Positions 31,285 to 41,174 of a DNA stretch of 64,000 nucleotides are shown one piece after another; position 1 is the stretch's first letter, and every line of letters begins with the position of its first letter. The DNA lies in contig CAWCMA010000011.1 in assembly GCA_963796565.1 (NCBI GenBank), positions 198,039 through 262,038 of the forward strand, in the 5' to 3' direction. The stretch is from an uncultured delta proteobacterium (GTDB taxonomy: Bacteria > Desulfobacterota > Binatia > Binatales > Binataceae). The notes under the pieces were generated by a model. The model ran no database searches. It was not told where the DNA came from and saw only the letters and a program-made list of their open reading frames with translations. Both the position numbers and the translations under genes were made by a program.

Positions 31285-32358
31285 TCAGCAGATTCGCGGC
31301 AGTTGGTCGCCGGCAAGGATATCGAGCAGGCGGGTCGGGCCAAACGCGGTTCGCAGGGCTACCCGCGGTTCGCCGCGGCGGGTGACCCTGCCGATACGAC
31401 ATGCGCTTGCTCCAAGCGGATGTAGCCGCATCGCCGCGAGTATTCGATCAGCGTGCGCTTCATCGACGATAGCGACGAGTCTGCCCTCGCAGGCCACGTA
31501 TAGTGGGTCGAGACCGAGTATCTCGCACGCGGCGCGGACCGCACCGCGCACCGGCACCGCCGACTCATCGATTACTATTTCGACCGCGGAGCTTTTTGCC
31601 AGTTCATTGATGATGGTTGCCACGCCACCGCGAGTCGCGTCGCGCATGCATCGGATGCCGCCGCCGCTGTCGAGCATTCGCGACACGAGTCCGTGAAGTG
31701 GCGCGCAGTCGCTGACCAGCGTCGTTTCGAATTCGAGTCCTTCGCGCGCCGACATCACGGCGATTCCGTGATCTCCCACGGGACCGCTCACCAACACCGC
31801 GTCGCCCGGCCGTGCCCGTTCGGGCCCTAGTTCCAAATTGCCTGGAATGACGCCGATTCCACTGGTCGTGATGAATAGTCCATCGGCTTTGCCGCGCTCG
31901 ACTACTTTGGTATCCGCCGCAATGACGGAAACTCCCGCCGCGCGCGATGCCTCCCGCATCGACTGCATAATCTGGCGCAGTTCCTCGATCGGGAGTCCCT
32001 CTTCGAGGATAAACGCCGCGGAGAGGCCGAGCGGTTGCGCTCCCGCGACCGCCAGATCGTTGATCGTGCCGTTGACCGCTAGTGAGCCGATGTCACCACC
32101 CGGGAATCTGAGCGGGCTTACCACGAATGAGTCGGTGGTGAAGACCAGCCGGCTCCCGCCGACGCTTACTTCCGCGCTGTCGTTGAGACGGTCGAGAATC
32201 GGATTCGACAACGCCGGAAGAAATACCGTGCGCACCAACTCGGCGGTCAGCCGACCGCCGCTTCCATGCCCGAGAACTATGAGGTCGTCCTTGCGCGACG
32301 GTAGTGGGCATTGCGGCACATCGGGAATGGCCGAAACTGCGCGATCGCGAACAGTCAT
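31285..32358 (-). CDS. hypE: Hydrogenase maturation protein HypE
   Basis: [38 protein letters not shown]-terminal PRIC; ATGA overlap with hypD. Confidence 0.95.
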
Positions 32359-33464
32359 TTTGCCTCCGTTGCGGCCGTCGAAACTCTGCCGGCGTGAAAA
32401 TATGCCGCGCATGCGCCTTCCGCGGAGACCATCGGAGCGCCGAGCGGATGCTCGGGGGTGCATACTCCGCCGAAAGCGGGGCATCGCGGAGGTTTCAACA
32501 AGCCGCGCAACACTTCGCCCGCGCGGCATTCGACGGGTTCAATCGCCGCTTCGTGGAACAGATCGAACCTGCGTATAGCATCGTAGGCGGCGTAGCGATC
32601 GGTCAGCGCGAGCGCGCTTTTCGGCAGCACGTCAAGTCCGCGCCATCGCCGGTCAACGATAGTGAAGATCTCCGCCATCAGCGACCGTGCGGAGAGGTTG
32701 CCCTCGGTGCGCACTGAGCGCACGTACTGGTTTTCGAGTTCAGCCCGGCCGGCCTCGAGTTGCGCCGCGCACATCGCAACACCCTGCAACAGGTCGAGCG
32801 GCTCGAAGCCGGTTACCACGATCGGCACCTTGAATTTCTCGACGAGCGGCCGATACTCCTCGATGCCCATCACCGCGCAGACGTGGCCGGCGGCCAAAAA
32901 GCCCTGGACGCGGTTGTTTTCCGATGACAAGATCGCCTCGATCGCGGGCGGGACGCGAACATGCGCGGCTATCACGGAGAAGTTGGGAAGCTTCAACCGT
33001 GAAGCGTGGAAGACCGCCATCGCGGTGGTCGGCGCGGTGGTTTCGAAGCCTACGGCGAAGAACACTACCTCGCGGGCAGGCTCACGCCGCGCCAGTTCCA
33101 GCGCGTCGAGGGGTGAGTAGACCACTCGGACGTCGGCGCCGGCGGCGCGCGCGTCGAAGAGATCGCACGAGGAGCCGGGCACCCGCAGCATGTCGCCGAA
33201 GGAGCAGAGCGTAATCTCGGGGCGCCTGGAAAGATCGATCGCGAGGTCGATCATTTCGATCGGCGTGACGCACACGGGGCATCCGGGGCCATGAACGAGA
33301 GTGATCTCGCGCGGCAGCAACTGGTCGAGTCCGTAGCGCAGGATTGTATGGGTTTGGCCGCCGCACACCTCCATGATCATCCACGGTCTGGTGACCGTTG
33401 CGCGGACGCGATCAAGAAGAGCACGGGCTGCGCCGGCGTCGCGAAATTCGTCGACGAATTTCAT
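32355..33464 (-). CDS. hypD: Hydrogenase maturation protein HypD
   Basis: [24 protein letters not shown]-terminal C..F...CTP..P.G..MVS.EGAC. Confidence 0.96.
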
Positions 33465-33721
33465 GGCTCATCTTCCTGATTGTCCCGCTGTATTTCGGGA
33501 ACCTCGATCTGTCGCATCAGTTCGAGCGTGCGCGCGGCCGCTTCCCGGTCCAGTGTGCCGATCGCGAAGCCCGCGTGAACGATTGCGTAGTCGCCTTCGA
33601 CGGCTTCCGGCACGTAGGCCAGGCAGACCCGGCGAGTGACGCCGCCGAAATCGACGTCTCCCATGCGCAGACCCTGTTGATCGACAATGCGAACTATTCG
33701 CCCAGGGACCGCAAGGCACAT
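33461..33721 (-). CDS. hypC: Hydrogenase chaperone HypC
   Basis: MCLAVPG...VHAGFAI. Confidence 0.96.
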
Positions 33722-36480
33722 GACGAACCTCCCAACCGATCGGAGTTGAGCCGCGCCGCGCCAACGACGGCCTGTCCGTATGCCAAGCCGCCGTCGTTGG
33801 CGGGCACGCTTTGATGCACCAGCACGGTAAATCCGTCTCGCTCCAGGCGCTCAACCGATGCGGCGAGCAACAGACGATTCTGAAAGCATCCGCCGCTCAA
33901 GGCCGCGACATTGATCCCGCTTTTCGCCTTCGCATCCGCCGCCATTCGCCGCACCACTTCGGCGATCGATTCGTGAAAGGCGCGGGCGATATCCGCTTTG
34001 GCCACGCCGCGAGTGATTTCGTCGAGGATCGCGCTAACCATGCCGCCGATTCGCACAACGCCGTCCTCGAGTGAGAAAGGATAGGTCCTATTGGTTCGAG
34101 ATGATTGGCGCGCGAGCGCTTCCAGTTCGATCGCCGCTTGGGCTTCGTAGGTCACCTCGTCACGCACTCCGAGGAGCGCCGCGACCGCATCGAACAGCCG
34201 GCCACAACTCGAAGTCTGAACGGTGCTGATGCGCCGCTCGATCATTTTGGTGAGGATGCGAACGCGTTCTTCGCCCAGAAATTCGCGTGACCGCGCGTCG
34301 GCAATTTCTCCAAAGAGAGTCAGCATATAAGCTGCCGCAATTCGCGCCGGGTGGCGAATCGCAGCGTCACCGCCCGCCAGCGGCATGTACTCGAGATGCG
34401 AGAGCCGGCGAAAGCCGAAAAAATCAAGGACCATTGCCTCGCCGCCCCAGATAGCGCCGTCGGCGCCGTAGCCCGTACCGTCGAAGGCGAGACCTATTGC
34501 CGGTCCCTGATGACCATGTTCGGCCATGCACGCGGCGAGGTGAGCGTGATGGTGCTGAACGGCAACGGTACCCATGCCCAGGTGCGCAGCGAGTTCGCGC
34601 GCCGCCGATTGGGGATGAAGATCATGGGCGGCGACGCGAGGTGTGATGCCGGTCAGGGCAAGCCATTTGTCGAGGGAATCGCGAAAATGATCCTGGGTCG
34701 CGACGTTTTCAAGCGTGCCGATGTGCTGGCTCATGAATGCCTGCCGGCCCGACAGGAGACAGAAGCTGTTTTTGAGATCGCCGCCGATTCCAAGAACCGG
34801 AACCGGTGCCTCGATCGGAGCCGTCAGTGCGCGAGGTGTCGCGCCGCGGCCAAGCCGGATCGGCTGAGCGCCATGTAATCCGGTCGTCCAGACACTATCG
34901 TCGCAGCGCTGATGAATCGGGCGATTGTGCAGCAGCAGCGCGTCCACCATACCGGCGAACGCAGTTCGCGTCTCCTCGCCGGTGCACGCGAGCGGCTCGC
35001 CAGGCAAATTAGCGCTGGTCATGATCAAGGGGCGTCCCACATCGTGCACAAGCAACTGATGAAGCGGCGAGTAAGCGATCATCAGTCCGACGTGGTCGTT
35101 GCCCGGAGCAACCGACGGCGCGAGTGCGATGTCTTCGCGTTTGCGCACGAGCACGATCGGCGCTTGCGATGAAGCGAGCAGGGCGGCTTCCTGATCTGAG
35201 ACGATTGCGAAGTGCAGCGCGGATCGCAACGAATCGACCATAATCGCCAGCGGCTTGTGCGTCCTTCGTTTGATCGCCCGCAGACGTAAAACCGCCGCCT
35301 CATTGGTCGCGTCGCACGAGAGATGAACGCCGCCAATCCCTTGAATGGCGATGATGCCGCCTTTGCGAAGGATAGCGGCGGCGCCGGCGATGCAGTCCTG
35401 AGGAACGAGGGACTCGCCGGTTTCCGGTTGCCGGCGGCAAACCTCGAGCCGTGCTTCAGGACCGCATTGTGGGCACGCTATCGGCTCTGCCCTGAAGCGC
35501 CGGTCCGACGGATCGAGGTATTCGCCCTCACATTTGGCACAGAGAGGAAATCCACGCAGCGTCGTGGTCTCGCGGTCGTATGGAAGCGCCTGAACGACAG
35601 TGAATCGCGGTCCGCACAAAGTGCAGTTGGTAAAGGGGTACCGGAAGCGGCGGCTCGCGGAATCGAAAATTTCATGCATGCATTCGGCACAGACGGCGAG
35701 ATCGGGTGGAATGGTCGTCGCCGCGCGGCCGCGCTCGCTCGGCATCGCGCAAAAGCCGGATTCGCCGCGCACTGAACGGCGCTCAACCTCGATCCTTTCG
35801 ATCGCGGCCGCCGGCGGCGCCTCCGACACCAGGCGCTGTCGAAATTCGCGCAAGTCATTTCGCGTGCCTTCGATTTCGATCTCGACGCCGCAGGACAGAT
35901 TGCGCACAAAACCGGCAATCTCGAGCGAGTTCGCTAAACGCCAGACGAATGGTCTGAAGCCCACTCCTTGTATGGTTCCGCTCACCACGAGGCGCTCGCG
36001 CGCTGTTTCGTTGAAATCGTTGGCCGATGCGCTCAGCTCCTCTACCCACAACCGCACCCGCGCCAGGGCGCGGCCTACCGCCCGCCGCGCAATCTGGCTG
36101 AGAAGATGCGGCCGCCGTGGCCGCGTGCGTGCGATTTCGATTCCGAGAACCCCACCTTGAGCAGGCGCCCAGCCCAATTTGCGCGCGAGTTGAACTGCCG
36201 CCGCCACACCCAGGTCGTGCGAGGAAACAAAGTGAGCCTCGCGTCGGCTGAGCTGGTCGAAGCTTAGTTCATGGAGAGTGCCCACAGGCGCGCCGGATCG
36301 CACGGCGTCGATAAGGATGGCGGAGTCGATTCCCTTCAGCAGTTCGAGGAGATTCGCACCCGGCCGATCGGCAACGATTACGTCGCAATTCGGCGGCGGT
36401 GCCTGCGCCAGGATTCGCGCGACCTCCAACCCGGCGGCATCGTCGCCGAAAGGGCTTCCGATTCCGATGATCCGAATCAA
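33694..36480 (-). CDS. hypF: Fusion: hydrogenase maturation endopeptidase (HybD/HycI-like) + carbamoyltransferase HypF
   Basis: N-terminal IIGIGSPFGDDAAG, IDAV, SSHDLG; then in frame the acylphosphatase domain (GTIQGVGFRPFV), two Zn fingers, YrdC and Kae1 domains (HDLHP, QHHHAH, DGTGYG, TSSCGRLFD, NDGGLAYGQ); probable TTG start at 36480 overlapping the large-subunit stop. Confidence 0.9.
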   Translation of the reverse strand: MIRIIGIGSPFGDDAAGLEVARILAQAPPPNCDVIVADRPGANLLELLKGIDSAILIDAVRSGAPVGTLHELSFDQLSRREAHFVSSHDLGVAAAVQLARKLGWAPAQGGVLGIEIARTRPRRPHLLSQIARRAVGRALARVRLWVEELSASANDFNETARERLVVSGTIQGVGFRPFVWRLANSLEIAGFVRNLSCGVEIEIEGTRNDLREFRQRLVSEAPPAAAIERIEVERRSVRGESGFCAMPSERGRAATTIPPDLAVCAECMHEIFDSASRRFRYPFTNCTLCGPRFTVVQALPYDRETTTLRGFPLCAKCEGEYLDPSDRRFRAEPIACPQCGPEARLEVCRRQPETGESLVPQDCIAGAAAILRKGGIIAIQGIGGVHLSCDATNEAAVLRLRAIKRRTHKPLAIMVDSLRSALHFAIVSDQEAALLASSQAPIVLVRKREDIALAPSVAPGNDHVGLMIAYSPLHQLLVHDVGRPLIMTSANLPGEPLACTGEETRTAFAGMVDALLLHNRPIHQRCDDSVWTTGLHGAQPIRLGRGATPRALTAPIEAPVPVLGIGGDLKNSFCLLSGRQAFMSQHIGTLENVATQDHFRDSLDKWLALTGITPRVAAHDLHPQSAARELAAHLGMGTVAVQHHHAHLAACMAEHGHQGPAIGLAFDGTGYGADGAIWGGEAMVLDFFGFRRLSHLEYMPLAGGDAAIRHPARIAAAYMLTLFGEIADARSREFLGEERVRILTKMIERRISTVQTSSCGRLFDAVAALLGVRDEVTYEAQAAIELEALARQSSRTNRTYPFSLEDGVVRIGGMVSAILDEITRGVAKADIARAFHESIAEVVRRMAADAKAKSGINVAALSGGCFQNRLLLAASVERLERDGFTVLVHQSVPANDGGLAYGQAVVGAARLNSDRLGGSSCALRSLGE

Positions 36481-37781
36481 TGCCGTTGGATCTCGAGTTT
36501 GAGGAAGTGCGTGGAGCAGGAGATGCACGGATCGTAGTTGCGAATTGCCATCTCGCACGCACTCGTCGCCTCTGCCTGCGATCTTTGAATTATTTCCGGA
36601 ACCAGCGCGCGCAAGTCGGCTTCGATACGCGCCTGGTTCTGCGACGTCGGCGGCACAATCCGCGCCGATCGAATCAATCCCCGCTCATCGGTCTCGTAGG
36701 CGTGAAAAAGAGAGCCGCGCGGCGCCTCCGTGATCGCACGTCCGATTCCAGCACGCGGCTCGAACGAAGCGGCAGACGCTGACGGCGGCTCGTAACCGTC
36801 AATGATCCTCAGCGCTTCGTCGATCGCATAAAGAATCTCCAACGAGCGTGCGACGATGCTCGCGTAGGGATTCGAGTTCGGCCATGGGATACCGGTGTCG
36901 CGCGCTACCGAGACGACTTCGGGCCCCAGCCGATCGAAATTGAGGTTGACCCGGGCCAGCGGTCCTAGGAAGTAGGGGCCGCGGCCTTTGACCTTGCAGT
37001 GAAGCGCGGTCGAATACGGTACCTGGTGCTCCTCGAAGAAGTCGTCGAAGTTTTCCTGGGCCGCATCGATGCCCTCGCTCGAAACTATCCTTCCTTCATT
37101 CATCGGATATTCGTCCGGATGCCGGAGCGACACGAACTCGATATCCCGGCTGATCGCGGGCAAATCAAAGCGCGAGACCCAACGCACGCATTCGACCGTG
37201 TCATCGCGCACGCGCAGAAGCTGTTCGCGCAGATCGGCAAGCTCGCCGCGCCGGGGAACGCGGGTGAAGCCGCCAATACACGCGCCCACCGGATGGACCG
37301 AACGGCCGCCGAGAATCGCCACGATGTTGTTGCCCGCCTTCTTTATTCTCAGCCCACGCTCCACTGCCTCCCGATTCTTCTCGGCCAATGTAATGACGCT
37401 CTCGCAGCCTAGAAAGTCTGGCGCCGCCAACATGTGGATGTGGAGGGCGTGGCTTTCGATCCATTCGCCGCAATAGAACAGCCGGCGCAAGGCGCGGATT
37501 GCCGGGTCAATCGCGATGCCGTACAGCCGCTCGAACGCGTGAACCGTGCTCATCTGGTAGGCGACCGGACAGATGCCGCAGATCCGGGACGTGAGGTCCG
37601 GGGCTTCGCGCGAATCGCGGCCGCGCAAAAATGATTCGAAGAAGCGGGGCGGCTCGAAAATTTCCAGGCGCAAGTCGGCCACCTCTCCGTCGCGCAACTT
37701 GATACGCAGGGCGCCTTCGCCCTCGACGCGGGTCAGATAGTTGACCTGTAGCGTTCTACTTTTTCTTCGCTGCGAGGGCAT
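36477..37781 (-). CDS. hyhL: Group 3b [NiFe]-hydrogenase large (alpha) subunit
   Basis: RVEGEG, L1 RICGICPVAY, EAPRG, L2 RNYDPCISCSTH followed by a 9-aa cleavable tail. Confidence 0.92.
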   Translation of the reverse strand: MPSQRRKSRTLQVNYLTRVEGEGALRIKLRDGEVADLRLEIFEPPRFFESFLRGRDSREAPDLTSRICGICPVAYQMSTVHAFERLYGIAIDPAIRALRRLFYCGEWIESHALHIHMLAAPDFLGCESVITLAEKNREAVERGLRIKKAGNNIVAILGGRSVHPVGACIGGFTRVPRRGELADLREQLLRVRDDTVECVRWVSRFDLPAISRDIEFVSLRHPDEYPMNEGRIVSSEGIDAAQENFDDFFEEHQVPYSTALHCKVKGRGPYFLGPLARVNLNFDRLGPEVVSVARDTGIPWPNSNPYASIVARSLEILYAIDEALRIIDGYEPPSASAASFEPRAGIGRAITEAPRGSLFHAYETDERGLIRSARIVPPTSQNQARIEADLRALVPEIIQRSQAEATSACEMAIRNYDPCISCSTHFLKLEIQRH

Positions 37782-38532
37782 CCGCGGTCTCCCGCCATGG
37801 CCGTACGTAGCCGTTGATCCCGCGCAAGCGGCGCATCGCCTCGTTTTCGGTGACGCCTTGAGCCGCCAGCAGTCCCGTGAACGACTCCATGTTCTGGTCA
37901 TCCGCCGGGCCGAAGCATCCGTAACATCCACGATTGAACGACGGACATAGCGCGCCGCATCCCGTGCGTGTCACCGGCCCGAGACACGGCTCGCCCCGCG
38001 CAACGACCACGCAGACGTTGCCACGCCGCTTGCATTCCATGCACACGCTATAACCCGGCAGGACCGGCTTCGCCCTGGACAACAGCGAACGCACGACGGT
38101 TAGCAGTTGATGCTTGTCGACCGGGCAGCCCCAGATCTCGAAATCGACGCGGACGTGTTCCGAGATCGGAGTCGAGGTCGACAGGGTCGAGATGAATTCG
38201 GGGCTCGGGTAGACGACGCGCCGGTATTGTTCGACGTCGGCCGAATTTCGCAACGCCTGGATTCCGCCCGCGGTCGCACATGCTCCGATGGTGACGAGAT
38301 AGCGGCTGTCTTCGCGCACCTTGATAATCCGCCGGGCGTCGTCAGGGGTGGTGATACTGCCCTCGACGAAGGCGATGTCGTAAGGCCCATCGAGCTGGCG
38401 GCTGCGCGCTTCCGCGAAATAGACGAAGTCAACCACTCCGGCGAGCTTCAATAGCTCATCCTCGGCGTTGAGGAATTGCAACTGGCAGCCGTCGCAAGAA
38501 GCAAACTTGAATACCGCAATACGGGGTTTCAT
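37756..38532 (-). CDS. hyhS: Group 3b hydrogenase small (delta) subunit
   Basis: FKFASCDGCQ, VEGS, GACATAGGIQ, GCP, VCMEC, CLGPVT..GC...C....RGCYGC; no Tat leader. Confidence 0.9.
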   Translation of the reverse strand: MKPRIAVFKFASCDGCQLQFLNAEDELLKLAGVVDFVYFAEARSRQLDGPYDIAFVEGSITTPDDARRIIKVREDSRYLVTIGACATAGGIQALRNSADVEQYRRVVYPSPEFISTLSTSTPISEHVRVDFEIWGCPVDKHQLLTVVRSLLSRAKPVLPGYSVCMECKRRGNVCVVVARGEPCLGPVTRTGCGALCPSFNRGCYGCFGPADDQNMESFTGLLAAQGVTENEAMRRLRGINGYVRPWRETADALAAKKK

Positions 38533-39356
38533 ATACCCGAGTGTCCGAATAGCTCTCTCACCGTGCGATAAGAGAAGATCGGCCCGTCCTTGCAGACGAA
38601 GTGCTCGCGATACTGGCAATGGCCGCAGAGCCCGACCGCGCACTCCATCCGCCGTTCCATCGATAGGTAGATAGCATCGTCGGCGATGCCCTTTTGCCGA
38701 AGCGAGTGCGCGGCGAAGCGCATCATCACCTCCGGACCGCACATCATCACCATCGACGATGGCGGTACAGTCAGCTCGTCAAACAATTCCGTGACCACAC
38801 CGATCCTGTAGTGCCAGCTCTTGTCTGGCTGGTCCGTCGTCAAGTAGACCTTGGTGCGCGGCGCGCGCCGCCATTCGTCGAATCGCTCGCGGTACAAAAG
38901 ATCATTCGGCGTCCTGACCCCGTGCAGAATATGCAGTTCGCCATACTCGTCACGCCGATGGAATATATAGTTGATTAACCCGACCACCGGTGCGCATCCA
39001 AGGCCGCCAGTGATAATTACGACGTCTCGCCCGCGCGCCGCGTCGACCGGCCATCCATTGCCATACGGACCGCGAACGCCGACTACGTCGCCCACCCTCC
39101 ACCGGGCCATCACGCCCGTTACGCGTCCCACTATCCGGATAGTGTGTTCGAGGATTTTCGGCTCCGCCGGATCCGACACGATGGAGATCGGTATCTCCCC
39201 GACGCCGAAGGCGTAGATCATGTTGAACTGCCCGGCCGCGAAGCGATACGAGCGACGCACTTCGGGATCGAGCAATCGCATGGTGAAGGTGTAGATATCC
39301 GCGCTCTCGGTCCGGCGGGCCGTGATGCGAGCCGGATGTATGGTGTAGGGGGTCAT
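38529..39356 (-). CDS. hyhG: Group 3b hydrogenase gamma subunit (FAD/NAD(P)-binding, 2Fe-2S)
   Basis: GQFNM, PISIVS, GPYGNGWP, GGLGCAP, CGPEVMM, ERRMECAVGLCGHCQ...CKDGP. Confidence 0.9.
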   Translation of the reverse strand: MTPYTIHPARITARRTESADIYTFTMRLLDPEVRRSYRFAAGQFNMIYAFGVGEIPISIVSDPAEPKILEHTIRIVGRVTGVMARWRVGDVVGVRGPYGNGWPVDAARGRDVVIITGGLGCAPVVGLINYIFHRRDEYGELHILHGVRTPNDLLYRERFDEWRRAPRTKVYLTTDQPDKSWHYRIGVVTELFDELTVPPSSMVMMCGPEVMMRFAAHSLRQKGIADDAIYLSMERRMECAVGLCGHCQYREHFVCKDGPIFSYRTVRELFGHSGI

Positions 39357-39360
39357 CGCC

Positions 39361-40467
39361 TCATCGCTCGCCCCGCTGAGCGCGGATCGCGGCGACTTCC
39401 TCGGTGAGGTCGATTCCAACCGGGCACCACGCGATACAACGGCCGCATCCAACACAGCCCGAAGTGCCGAACTGATCGATCCATGAGGCGAGCTTGTGGG
39501 TGAGCCATTGGCGGTAGCGGTTGCGGATATGCGGACGGAAGTTCATGCCGTGGATGTGCGCATGCTCGAGCGAGAAACAGGAGTCCCACTCGCGCACGCG
39601 ACGGCTCATGTTGCCCTCGAGCTCCTCGACGTCGATGACCGTGTGGCAGAAGCACGTTGGGCATACCATCGTGCAGTTGGTGCACGAGAGGCATCGGGAC
39701 GCGACGTCGTTCCAGCGAGGATTCTCGGCTTCCTCGTAAAGCAGGCGCGGCAGATCCGAAGTATCCAGGTGCCGCTGCATGGCTGCCGCGCACTCGCCAA
39801 TCCGCGCGCGTGCCGCCGTCGCTTCGTCGTCGTGGGCCGCACTCAACTGGAGCTTGGCGACGATCGCGTCACCGGCGGAAGAGGCGCTCCGCACCACGAA
39901 GCTTTCTTCCATTTCGGTTAAGGAGAGATCGAAGCCGGTGGTCGCCTCGGGCCCTGTTCCCATCGAGGTGCAGAAGCAGGTCGACGAGCTACGGGTGCAG
40001 TTGACCGCGACCAGAAAAGCGTCCTTGCGCCTGGTCTCGTAATGCGTGTCGCGAAAGCGATCGTGCAGGAAGATCCGATCCTGGACCGCCAGCGCCGCCA
40101 GATCGCAGGCCCGCACTCCGATGAACGCCAGCCGGGGCGCGGTGGGTGTTACCTCGCTGACCTTGAAGCCGCGCCGTTCTCGCTGCACTTCGAGCAGCGT
40201 TTCTTGCGGCGCGAAAAAGAACGGCTTGAGCGAACCGGCGCCGTTCACCACTCCGAAAATTTCTCCGGCGACGCCTGCCCCGAGGCGGTAGCGGCCGGGC
40301 TCCTGCGATTCGCGCATTCCCACCGGCAGGTCGGAAACCCGGCGCACCTCTTCAAAAGCCACGCCACCGTCACGCGCGACCGGGCCCAGAACCTTGAATT
40401 CCTCGCCCCACAGCAACGTGATGAGATCCTGGAGCACCGCCTTGGGCATCTTCAGGGGCTCCTTCAT
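39361..40467 (-). CDS. hyhB: Group 3b hydrogenase beta subunit (4Fe-4S dicluster, AsrA-like)
   Basis: GVRACD, C...[40 protein letters not shown]. Confidence 0.9.
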
Positions 40468-41174
40468 GCGGACTTCTCCGAGGCGTACAGGAACGTAACG
40501 CGCAGACTGCCCAGCAGGGACAGCCACTCGCCGATACCGTCCGCGCTCATAGCCGAAGCCTTGATTATTCGCGCATGCGGATTGACCGCGCGCACGTAGT
40601 CAGTCCACTCGTCGAGCTCGAAGGGCACGTACGGCAACAGATCGCACTTGTTCAATACCACGACATCGGCCGCGCGAAACATCGGCGGATATTTAAGCGC
40701 CTTGTCGACTCCTTCGGTGGGACTCGTCACCACTACGCGAAGCTGCTCGCCCAAATCGAACAGCGCCGGACAGACCAGATTGCCCACGTTTTCAATGAAG
40801 AGCACGCCACCCCTGGTGAGTTCGAGATGGTGAAGGGCGCGATGAATCTGAGCGGCATCAAGATGGCACCCGAGCCCGGTCTCCACCTGATACGCGGTCG
40901 CGCCTGCGGAGCGGATGCGCGCGCTGTCGCGGTCCGTTGCCTGGTCTCCCTCAATTACTGCGATCCGTCCGGAATCCCGCCACGACGCGATCGTAGTTTC
41001 GAGCAGCGAGGTCTTTCCCGCGCCTGGCGCGCCCATCAGATTGATCGCGAAAACTCCCTGTTTCGCAAAGTGAGTCCGGTTGTGTTCTGCTGTAGCCGCG
41101 TTCGCGGCGAGCAACCGCTCGTTGACCTCGATTGTGCGCACCGACGGAGTGCCGCAGCCACACGTGTCACACAT
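40464..41174 (-). CDS. hypB: Hydrogenase nickel GTPase HypB
   Basis: N-terminal MCDTCGC, GAPGAGKT, GCH, ENVGNLVCP, KYP, NKCD. Confidence 0.96.
   Translation of the reverse strand: MCDTCGCGTPSVRTIEVNERLLAANAATAEHNRTHFAKQGVFAINLMGAPGAGKTSLLETTIASWRDSGRIAVIEGDQATDRDSARIRSAGATAYQVETGLGCHLDAAQIHRALHHLELTRGGVLFIENVGNLVCPALFDLGEQLRVVVTSPTEGVDKALKYPPMFRAADVVVLNKCDLLPYVPFELDEWTDYVRAVNPHARIIKASAMSADGIGEWLSLLGSLRVTFLYASEKSA

Follow-up and report, generated by a model that had tools for sequence, protein, structure and literature searches.

Maturation of [NiFe]-hydrogenases is understood as a relay of separate proteins, opened by HypF, which is regarded as common to several hydrogenases, and closed by an endopeptidase, which is regarded as dedicated to a single enzyme. 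Why would a bacterium join these two into one chain? The question is raised by hycI::hypF, a fused gene of 928 codons (33694..36480, minus strand, as are all features given below) in a 64,000-nucleotide stretch of the genome of an uncultured soil bacterium of Candidatus Binataceae (assembly GCA_963796565.1, contig CAWCMA010000011.1, positions 198,039 to 262,038; the whole stretch is called the window here). On the evidence of sequence comparisons and structure models, the gene is likely to encode a bifunctional maturation protein, consisting of a protease and a complete HypF, that arose by loss of a stop codon. The sequence-only reading of this locus had recognised the fusion, and had proposed in addition that it brings the earliest and the final step of maturation together on a single scaffold; the following sections uphold the former and argue against the latter.

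One reading frame, two sets of domains

The frame is free of stop codons from 33694 to 36480 and yields 928 amino acids when read from a TTG at 36480, the length first proposed for it; a product of 928 aa is also found in public gene calls of close relatives. The last two bases of the TTG and the A that follows form the TGA stop codon of hyhL, the gene of the hydrogenase large subunit (CAT TGA in one frame, TTG ATT in the other; ATTGA), and both this overlap, already noted in the sequence-only reading, and the TTG start are kept in the five fused species representatives. Upstream, the frame stays open as far as a GTG at 36558, a start that lies 82 nt inside hyhL; MIRIIGIG is the N-terminus of all homologues. 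At the other end, residues 918-928, the final 11 of the HypF part, have a predicted local distance difference test score (pLDDT) below 50 and show no conservation, so the functional C-terminus would lie at about residue 915. The final 28 nt of the gene (33694-33721) overlap the start of hypC.

The N-terminal endopeptidase domain is of the HycI/HybD/HoxW type (36016..36480, residues 1-155). It matches PF01750 (HycI) over residues 25-135 with 33.5 bits (cut-off 23) in Pfam, and TIGR00072 (hydrogenase maturation protease) over residues 4-144 with 86.9 bits (cut-off 47.45) in NCBIfam. The three motifs by which the domain had been recognised, GIGSPFGDDAAG, IDAV and SSHDLG, are all found within the first ~150 residues and align to HybD D15/E16, D62 and H93; in this alignment D14, D58 and H88 are the counterparts of the HybD (1cfz) metal ligands E16, D62 and H93. 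The ligands are kept in 66 of 66 aligned fused homologues from several lineages, with D13, D58 and H88 invariant and position 14 occupied by D in 63 and by E in three. An AlphaFold (AF2) model of residues 1-150 (pLDDT 87.6; predicted template modelling score, pTM, 0.85) has only hydrogenase maturation proteases among its top 10 PDB matches, including 1cfz (E 8.9e-10, TMq 0.80), 5ttx, 2kml, 5ija, 5zby, 2i8l and 2e85.

The domain is thus alike in fold to HybD/HycI of E. coli and T. kodakarensis (1cfz, 2e85, 2i8l, 5ija, 5zby; TMq 0.67-0.80) and agrees with them at the three metal-binding positions, although in sequence it is just 18-24% identical to the solved proteases. As in those systems, the gene directly follows that of its cognate large subunit, whose chain continues beyond DPCxxCxxH in a tail. 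It departs from the family in one respect: E. coli and T. kodakarensis HybD/HycI are free proteins of ~150-165 aa, whereas here no stop codon follows the domain and the frame runs on into HypF, which makes it the N-terminal part of a 928-aa protein. Judged by ligand conservation and fold, the protease looks active.

The remainder of the chain has the domain order of HypF, with Pfam matches after HycI to Acylphosphatase, two zf-HYPF, Sua5/YrdC, HypF_C and HypF_C_2. The acylphosphatase domain (35752..35994, residues 163-243; PF00708, 75.7 bits) is followed by two zinc fingers (35461..35694, residues ~263-340), where PF07503 matches twice, by a YrdC/Sua5-like domain (34855..35373, residues 370-542; PF01300, 146 bits) and by a Kae1-like domain (33772..34803, residues 560-903), matched by PF17788 and PF22521. 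The HypF equivalog TIGR00143 scores 758.4 bits (cut-off 466.1) over residues 166-906, which cover profile positions 3-739 of 741. Both profiles, that of the protease and that of HypF, exceed their cut-offs in one frame, and HycI is indeed joined in frame to HypF. Among the 66 aligned sequences the acylphosphatase residues R176 and N194, the zinc-finger cysteines C264, C267, C286, C289, C314, C317, C336 and C339, and the histidine cluster H643, H644 and H647 show no variation. The HypF body of the full-length model (pLDDT 85.5, pTM 0.76) superimposes on full-length HypF 3vth_A over 758 columns (rmsd 2.3, TMt 0.94).

Solved full-length HypF chains, from Caldanaerobacter subterraneus (3vth/3vti), T. 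kodakarensis (4g9i) and E. coli (3tsp), have the same four domains in the same order, with 34-39% identity to the HypF part and TMt of 0.83-0.95. The operon also encodes a HypE with C-terminal PRIC, like known HypF systems. What sets the protein apart is the additional N-terminal domain of ~155 residues, which none of the matched HypF chains possesses. By every sequence and fold criterion tested, each half is an ordinary member of its family, save that the protease is not free-standing.

Purifying selection is indicated for both halves. In pairwise comparisons with eight relatives, the protease domain had a ratio of nonsynonymous to synonymous substitution rates (dN/dS) of 0.19-0.25; the acylphosphatase domain gave 0.12-0.34 and the HypF core (residues 246-915) 0.16-0.40, values that point to equal constraint on protease and HypF. 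The segment between them, helix plus tether, gave 0.2-1.7, as against the lower ratios of the flanking domains. Independent contigs from two studies in Logan, X1 (study P1, 1576 bp) and X3 (study P2, 832 bp), cover the junction without a gap (35833-36664), and neither holds the stop codon or indel there that would separate the genes; they differ from the window by synonymous or conservative substitutions (L195L, P177P, R132Q, R118H, V66A, G63G). The runs with matching sequence, available as contigs, are apparently soil DNA metagenomes.

Recurrence and origin of the fusion

Among 5.8 billion proteins searched, ~70 clusters (formed at 90% identity, with lengths of 880-940 aa) share the architecture and are 47-96% identical to this protein; the first 330 residues are fully or nearly covered, and nearly all clusters were already annotated with PF01750 and the HypF domains. 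Their sources are JGI, ENA, NCBI and Logan, and those that carry a name are called only "carbamoyltransferase HypF [Candidatus Binataceae bacterium]". In a HMMER search of 1.84 billion 50%-identity representatives with residues 1-250, ~4 of the best 150 matches span both domains, so the architecture is present in databases, labelled plain HypF, and is rare rather than common. Other fused cases are a fragment from Candidatus Eisenbacteria ("hydrogenase maturation protease, partial") and a protein of 982 aa.

Among 401 genomes of the same GTDB phylum, unbroken full-length matches occur in the window genome, in a genome of another genus of the same family (G263, 60% identity) and in three genomes of a different family, f45, whose fused proteins have 918-923 aa and ~38% identity. 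The gene order hyhBGSL, hycI::hypF, (hypC) hypD hypE is common to all of these. Of 81 close relatives, ~9 have the fused gene, all within the family; it is absent from the class's other families. No match at all occurs in ten of the 16 other genomes of the genus (among them G402, G403, G405-G409, G412 and G415), so that the group 3b hydrogenase and its maturation cassette are accessory and patchily distributed in the genus. Two genomes of the genus hold additional copies: G404 has a fused copy (C2) and an unfused HypF (C4), and G413 has two fused copies (C1 and C9), one in a much shorter frame of 442 aa. In genus g3 of the same family, G317 and G204 carry a different hydrogenase (PF00374 full-length in a frame of 569-689 aa) with free HycI and unfused HypF; within one family, maturation gene architecture thus tracks the type of hydrogenase cassette.

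The likely route to the fusion is visible in two families of the phylum, f19 and f22. There, hycI is followed by TAA or TAG, 9-21 nt, an ATG and hypF, with both genes in one frame, so that loss of the stop codon is enough to explain the fusion; in the loci examined the order is large subunit, hycI, hypF, hypD, hypE, as in the window. Unfused neighbours downstream of large-subunit genes also occur in metagenome-assembled genomes (MAGs) of Nitrospira and Zixibacteria. All four groups make two proteins, since hycI has its stop codon and hypF an ATG of its own; the stop-to-stop frames of the two genes are 150-330 nt apart in Nitrospira. In three f19 loci (L023, L024 and L025, from G327, G274 and G246), the large-subunit gene upstream of the split pair has one in-frame TGA near the part encoding the C-terminus, which fits, as expected, a selenocysteine-containing enzyme of the [NiFeSe] type.

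A survey of 80 HycI loci in species representatives found five that are fused, from Binataceae and from MAGs labelled "Deltaproteobacteria" or "Proteobacteria"; hycI and hypF are separate neighbours in Nitrospira and others. Two more loci are fused with frameshifts, apparently in long-read assemblies. In L035 and L061 (MFD long-read MAGs), G416 and G427 the fused gene is broken into several frames, and in L061 the large subunit is as well; the pattern resembles assembly error of the homopolymer type more than pseudogenes. In a further protein, P0080, which has 532 aa and five cluster members on contigs of up to 281 kb, a HycI that is 71% identical to that of the window is joined in frame not to HypF but to a class I fructose-bisphosphate aldolase (PF00274), whose Met comes after the protease helix with no stop between. 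Stop loss may have produced this fusion too, or the gene call may read through a rearrangement.

In a maximum-likelihood tree built from the HypF part of 73 sequences, the fused proteins fall into four well-supported clades apart from one another: Binataceae, the P0070-72 group, an Acidimicrobiales group (P0088, P0131) and f45, whose sister is the f19/f22 group with adjacent but split genes. At least five changes of the fused state are required on this tree, and a single fused clade costs 587 log-likelihood units and is rejected (p-AU 6e-7, the group having been named after the tree was seen). These results indicate that the fusion arose several times, giving rise to at least four separate clades, and the relatives of the window's gene are not uniformly encoded as two genes.

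Some observations weigh against the reading of the fusion as a bifunctional protein. Free HycI genes are found in close relatives, in L031 (73% identity) and G419 (72%), and further such genes in L033 and L039. Moreover, P0074 (from L029), which is nested within the fused Binataceae, is genuinely split by a TAG, with the ATG of hypF in the +1 frame; this reversal indicates that the fusion is dispensable. A second apparent exception among the Binataceae, P0073, was rejected, as its gene call is cut short by the end of a contig and the protease frame continues upstream. The idea that fusion occurs only where there is one hydrogenase fits the window genome and G263 and fails in f45, where genomes with the fused gene have three to four large subunits and two of the three have a second, free HycI.

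What joining the two halves may achieve

If the fused gene encodes a bifunctional protein, the N-terminal ~150 residues would act as a nickel-sensing endopeptidase of the HycI/HybD type that cuts FLKLEIQRH from HyhL after nickel insertion. The C-terminal part would act as HypF, converting carbamoyl phosphate to carbamoyl-adenylate and carbamoylating the C-terminal cysteine of HypE (in PRIC) on the way to the cyanide ligands. The fusion would have formed when hycI, already next to hypF, in frame with it and translationally coupled to it, lost its stop codon, leaving the two parts joined by a short, variable tether. The function of the fusion is then probably the sum of two known enzymes. Its main effect is most likely an obligatory 1:1 co-synthesis of both parts, and perhaps it also stabilises the small protease. 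That it provides a catalytic scaffold of fixed geometry is less likely. The variable linker and the split relatives favour a loose tether with co-expression.

The scaffold proposed in the sequence-only reading would hold the tethered protease inside a complex of HypF, HypE, HypCD and the large subunit, and would coordinate cofactor synthesis with proteolysis. The at least four independent origins are in its favour, since repeated origin together with purifying selection suggests some benefit. So is the full-length model, in which the C-terminal helix of the protease (129-155) is predicted to lead almost straight into the first acylphosphatase strand, with a whole-chain pTM of 0.76; natural fusions in the Kae1 superfamily also exist, such as Kae1-Bud32 (3en9), which was a match in the fold search. 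Against these points stands the tether itself, which ranges from ~3 to 35 residues among the 66 aligned fused homologues, is poorly conserved and evolves faster than the domains, so that no fixed geometry seems to be maintained. Split and free-protease forms in close relatives, and the f45 genomes, in which a fused HypF must serve three to four hydrogenases in the presence of a second free protease, tell in the same direction. The scaffold is not supported as stated, and we consider it improbable.

Slightly more doubtful still is the possibility that the tethered protease is a built-in part of the complex, waiting at the C-terminal tail of a large-subunit precursor that HypF holds via HypE and HypCD, so that insertion and cleavage would be kinetically coupled. 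The repeated fusions would then be a Rosetta-stone signal of a contact between HypF and the protease that goes unnoticed where the two are separate. Kae1-Bud32 of M. jannaschii (3en9) is a natural fusion with a Kae1-family domain, from the superfamily of the C-terminal domain of HypF, and it foreshadowed a real complex, KEOPS; partner and biology differ, and it is a precedent only for reading fusions as hints of interaction. HypF and the maturation protease are not known to interact.

A third alternative, which we rate as unlikely and a little below the foregoing, is that the one frame gives rise to two proteins, by internal initiation or by cleavage of the tether, and that the fusion is genetic only. 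The junction, composed of the end of the protease C-terminal helix and the tether (35995..36033, residues ~150-162, ELSASANDFNETA), is the counterpart of the stop codon, spacer and ATG of unfused relatives; in the window, ELSASANDFNETARE corresponds to the old stop, the spacer and the first HypF codons. Two free products are suggested by the unfused relative P0074, whose HypF ATG is located in the linker region, and by the properties of the tether, which is the least constrained part of the protein and lies where model confidence is lowest near the junction (pLDDT 63 in residues 151-160). An internal start codon in the linker was nevertheless rejected. As had been stated before, the linker leads into the acylphosphatase domain of HypF with no ATG between them; the only in-frame ATG, GTG or TTG in codons 145-172 are GTG 165 and GTG 166, which have no Shine-Dalgarno sequence and lie within the first acylphosphatase strand, which initiation there would truncate, so neither is plausible. 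No start codon in the linker is conserved across the 66 fused homologues, and on reading its sequence the linker is unlike the DPCxxCxxH site cut by these proteases. A tryptic peptide of the intact protein would span the junction with LWVEELSASANDFNETAR (residues 144-161).

It is very unlikely that the protease domain is degenerate, with catalysis lost and the N-terminus left only to bind or chaperone the tail of the large subunit. The modest Pfam score (33.5 bits) and the low sequence similarity to solved proteases (E ~0.006 to 1cfz) would allow it, but the metal ligands are all conserved, the TIGR00072 score of 86.9 bits exceeds the cut-off of 47.45, dN/dS equals that of HypF, and the domain is the only protease of a genome whose large subunit keeps its tail. 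Finally, the explanation that two ordinary genes were run together by an error of sequencing or assembly, through a lost stop or a shifted frame, is effectively refuted: the window does come from a metagenome-type assembly, and the frameshifts in L035, L061, G416 and G427 show that errors do occur in this gene in related long-read assemblies, but the same fused frame recurs in the ~70 clusters from four sources, in at least seven other intact genes among the 81 relative genomes and in five further loci among the 80 species-representative loci, the contigs of two independent studies are gap-free at the junction, and both domains that flank it are under purifying selection.

Genomic setting and meaning of the fusion

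The bifunctional protein would serve a hydrogenase encoded in the same operon. The large subunit HyhL (36477..37781, 434 aa; PF00374) has the motifs RICGIC and DPCISCSTH and ends in DPCISCSTH-FLKLEIQRH*. The tail of nine residues (FLKLEIQRH, 36480-36506), whose retention had been taken as a sign that a protease is needed, is thereby confirmed and is conserved in relatives. Upstream lie the genes of the small subunit, hyhS (37756-38532; best NCBIfam match sulfhydrogenase delta), the gamma subunit, hyhG (38529-39356), and the beta subunit, hyhB (39361-40467), the last two matched in Pfam and NCBIfam as sulfhydrogenase gamma and beta; HyhL itself has its best NCBIfam matches among sulfhydrogenase alpha subunits. 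The set agrees with the make-up of group 3b enzymes, in which the gamma subunit binds NAD(P) and the beta subunit carries Fe-S. Taken from the best NCBIfam matches (ShyA/HydA, HydD, ShyC/HydG-type and HydB, all below the archaeal equivalog cut-offs) and those in Pfam, the class of the enzyme would be that of the four-subunit group 3b hydrogenases.

Together with the fused gene, the operon encodes a full HypA-E set. Farther upstream are hypB (40464-41174; PF02492) and hypA (41167 to about 41511; PF01155; 114 aa in the relative L111), and downstream of the fused gene follow hypC (33461-33721, beginning with MCLAVPG), hypD (32355-33464) and hypE (31285 to about 32358, ending in PRIC).

The source genome (4.67 Mb, 13 contigs, 95.9% complete) was searched as a whole and contains a single NiFe large subunit, a single HypF and no HycI domain other than that of the fusion. 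The only other Kae1-like match is an open frame of 345 aa, probably the tRNA enzyme TsaD. The protease described as the only one in the window thus has the only HycI domain of the genome, and the fused protein would be the sole source of both activities for its hydrogenase.

That the protease and HypF are normally separate proteins is borne out by these comparisons. A search of the full-text literature, which covers few subscription journals, so that absence is no proof, found no description of a HycI-HypF fusion, in keeping with the earlier remark that none is known; we provisionally regard the fusion as undescribed. The main genome paper on Binatota discusses only group 1 hydrogenases and does not mention HypF (PMC8262859).

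If the fusion reflects only co-expression, it is a tidy stop-loss fusion of translationally coupled neighbours and no more. Even so, a protease-HypF fusion that evolved repeatedly and is under selection adds a new domain architecture to hydrogenase maturation, and it implies that HypF tolerates a folded 17-kDa domain at the N-terminus of its acylphosphatase domain. The protein may serve as a compact all-in-one part for the heterologous expression of group 3b hydrogenases, and offers an inexpensive way to learn whether protease and Hyp machinery ever come into contact. For the organisms themselves the fusion points to an annotation gap: because the database copies are all named only "HypF", genome surveys would score their hosts as lacking a maturation protease.

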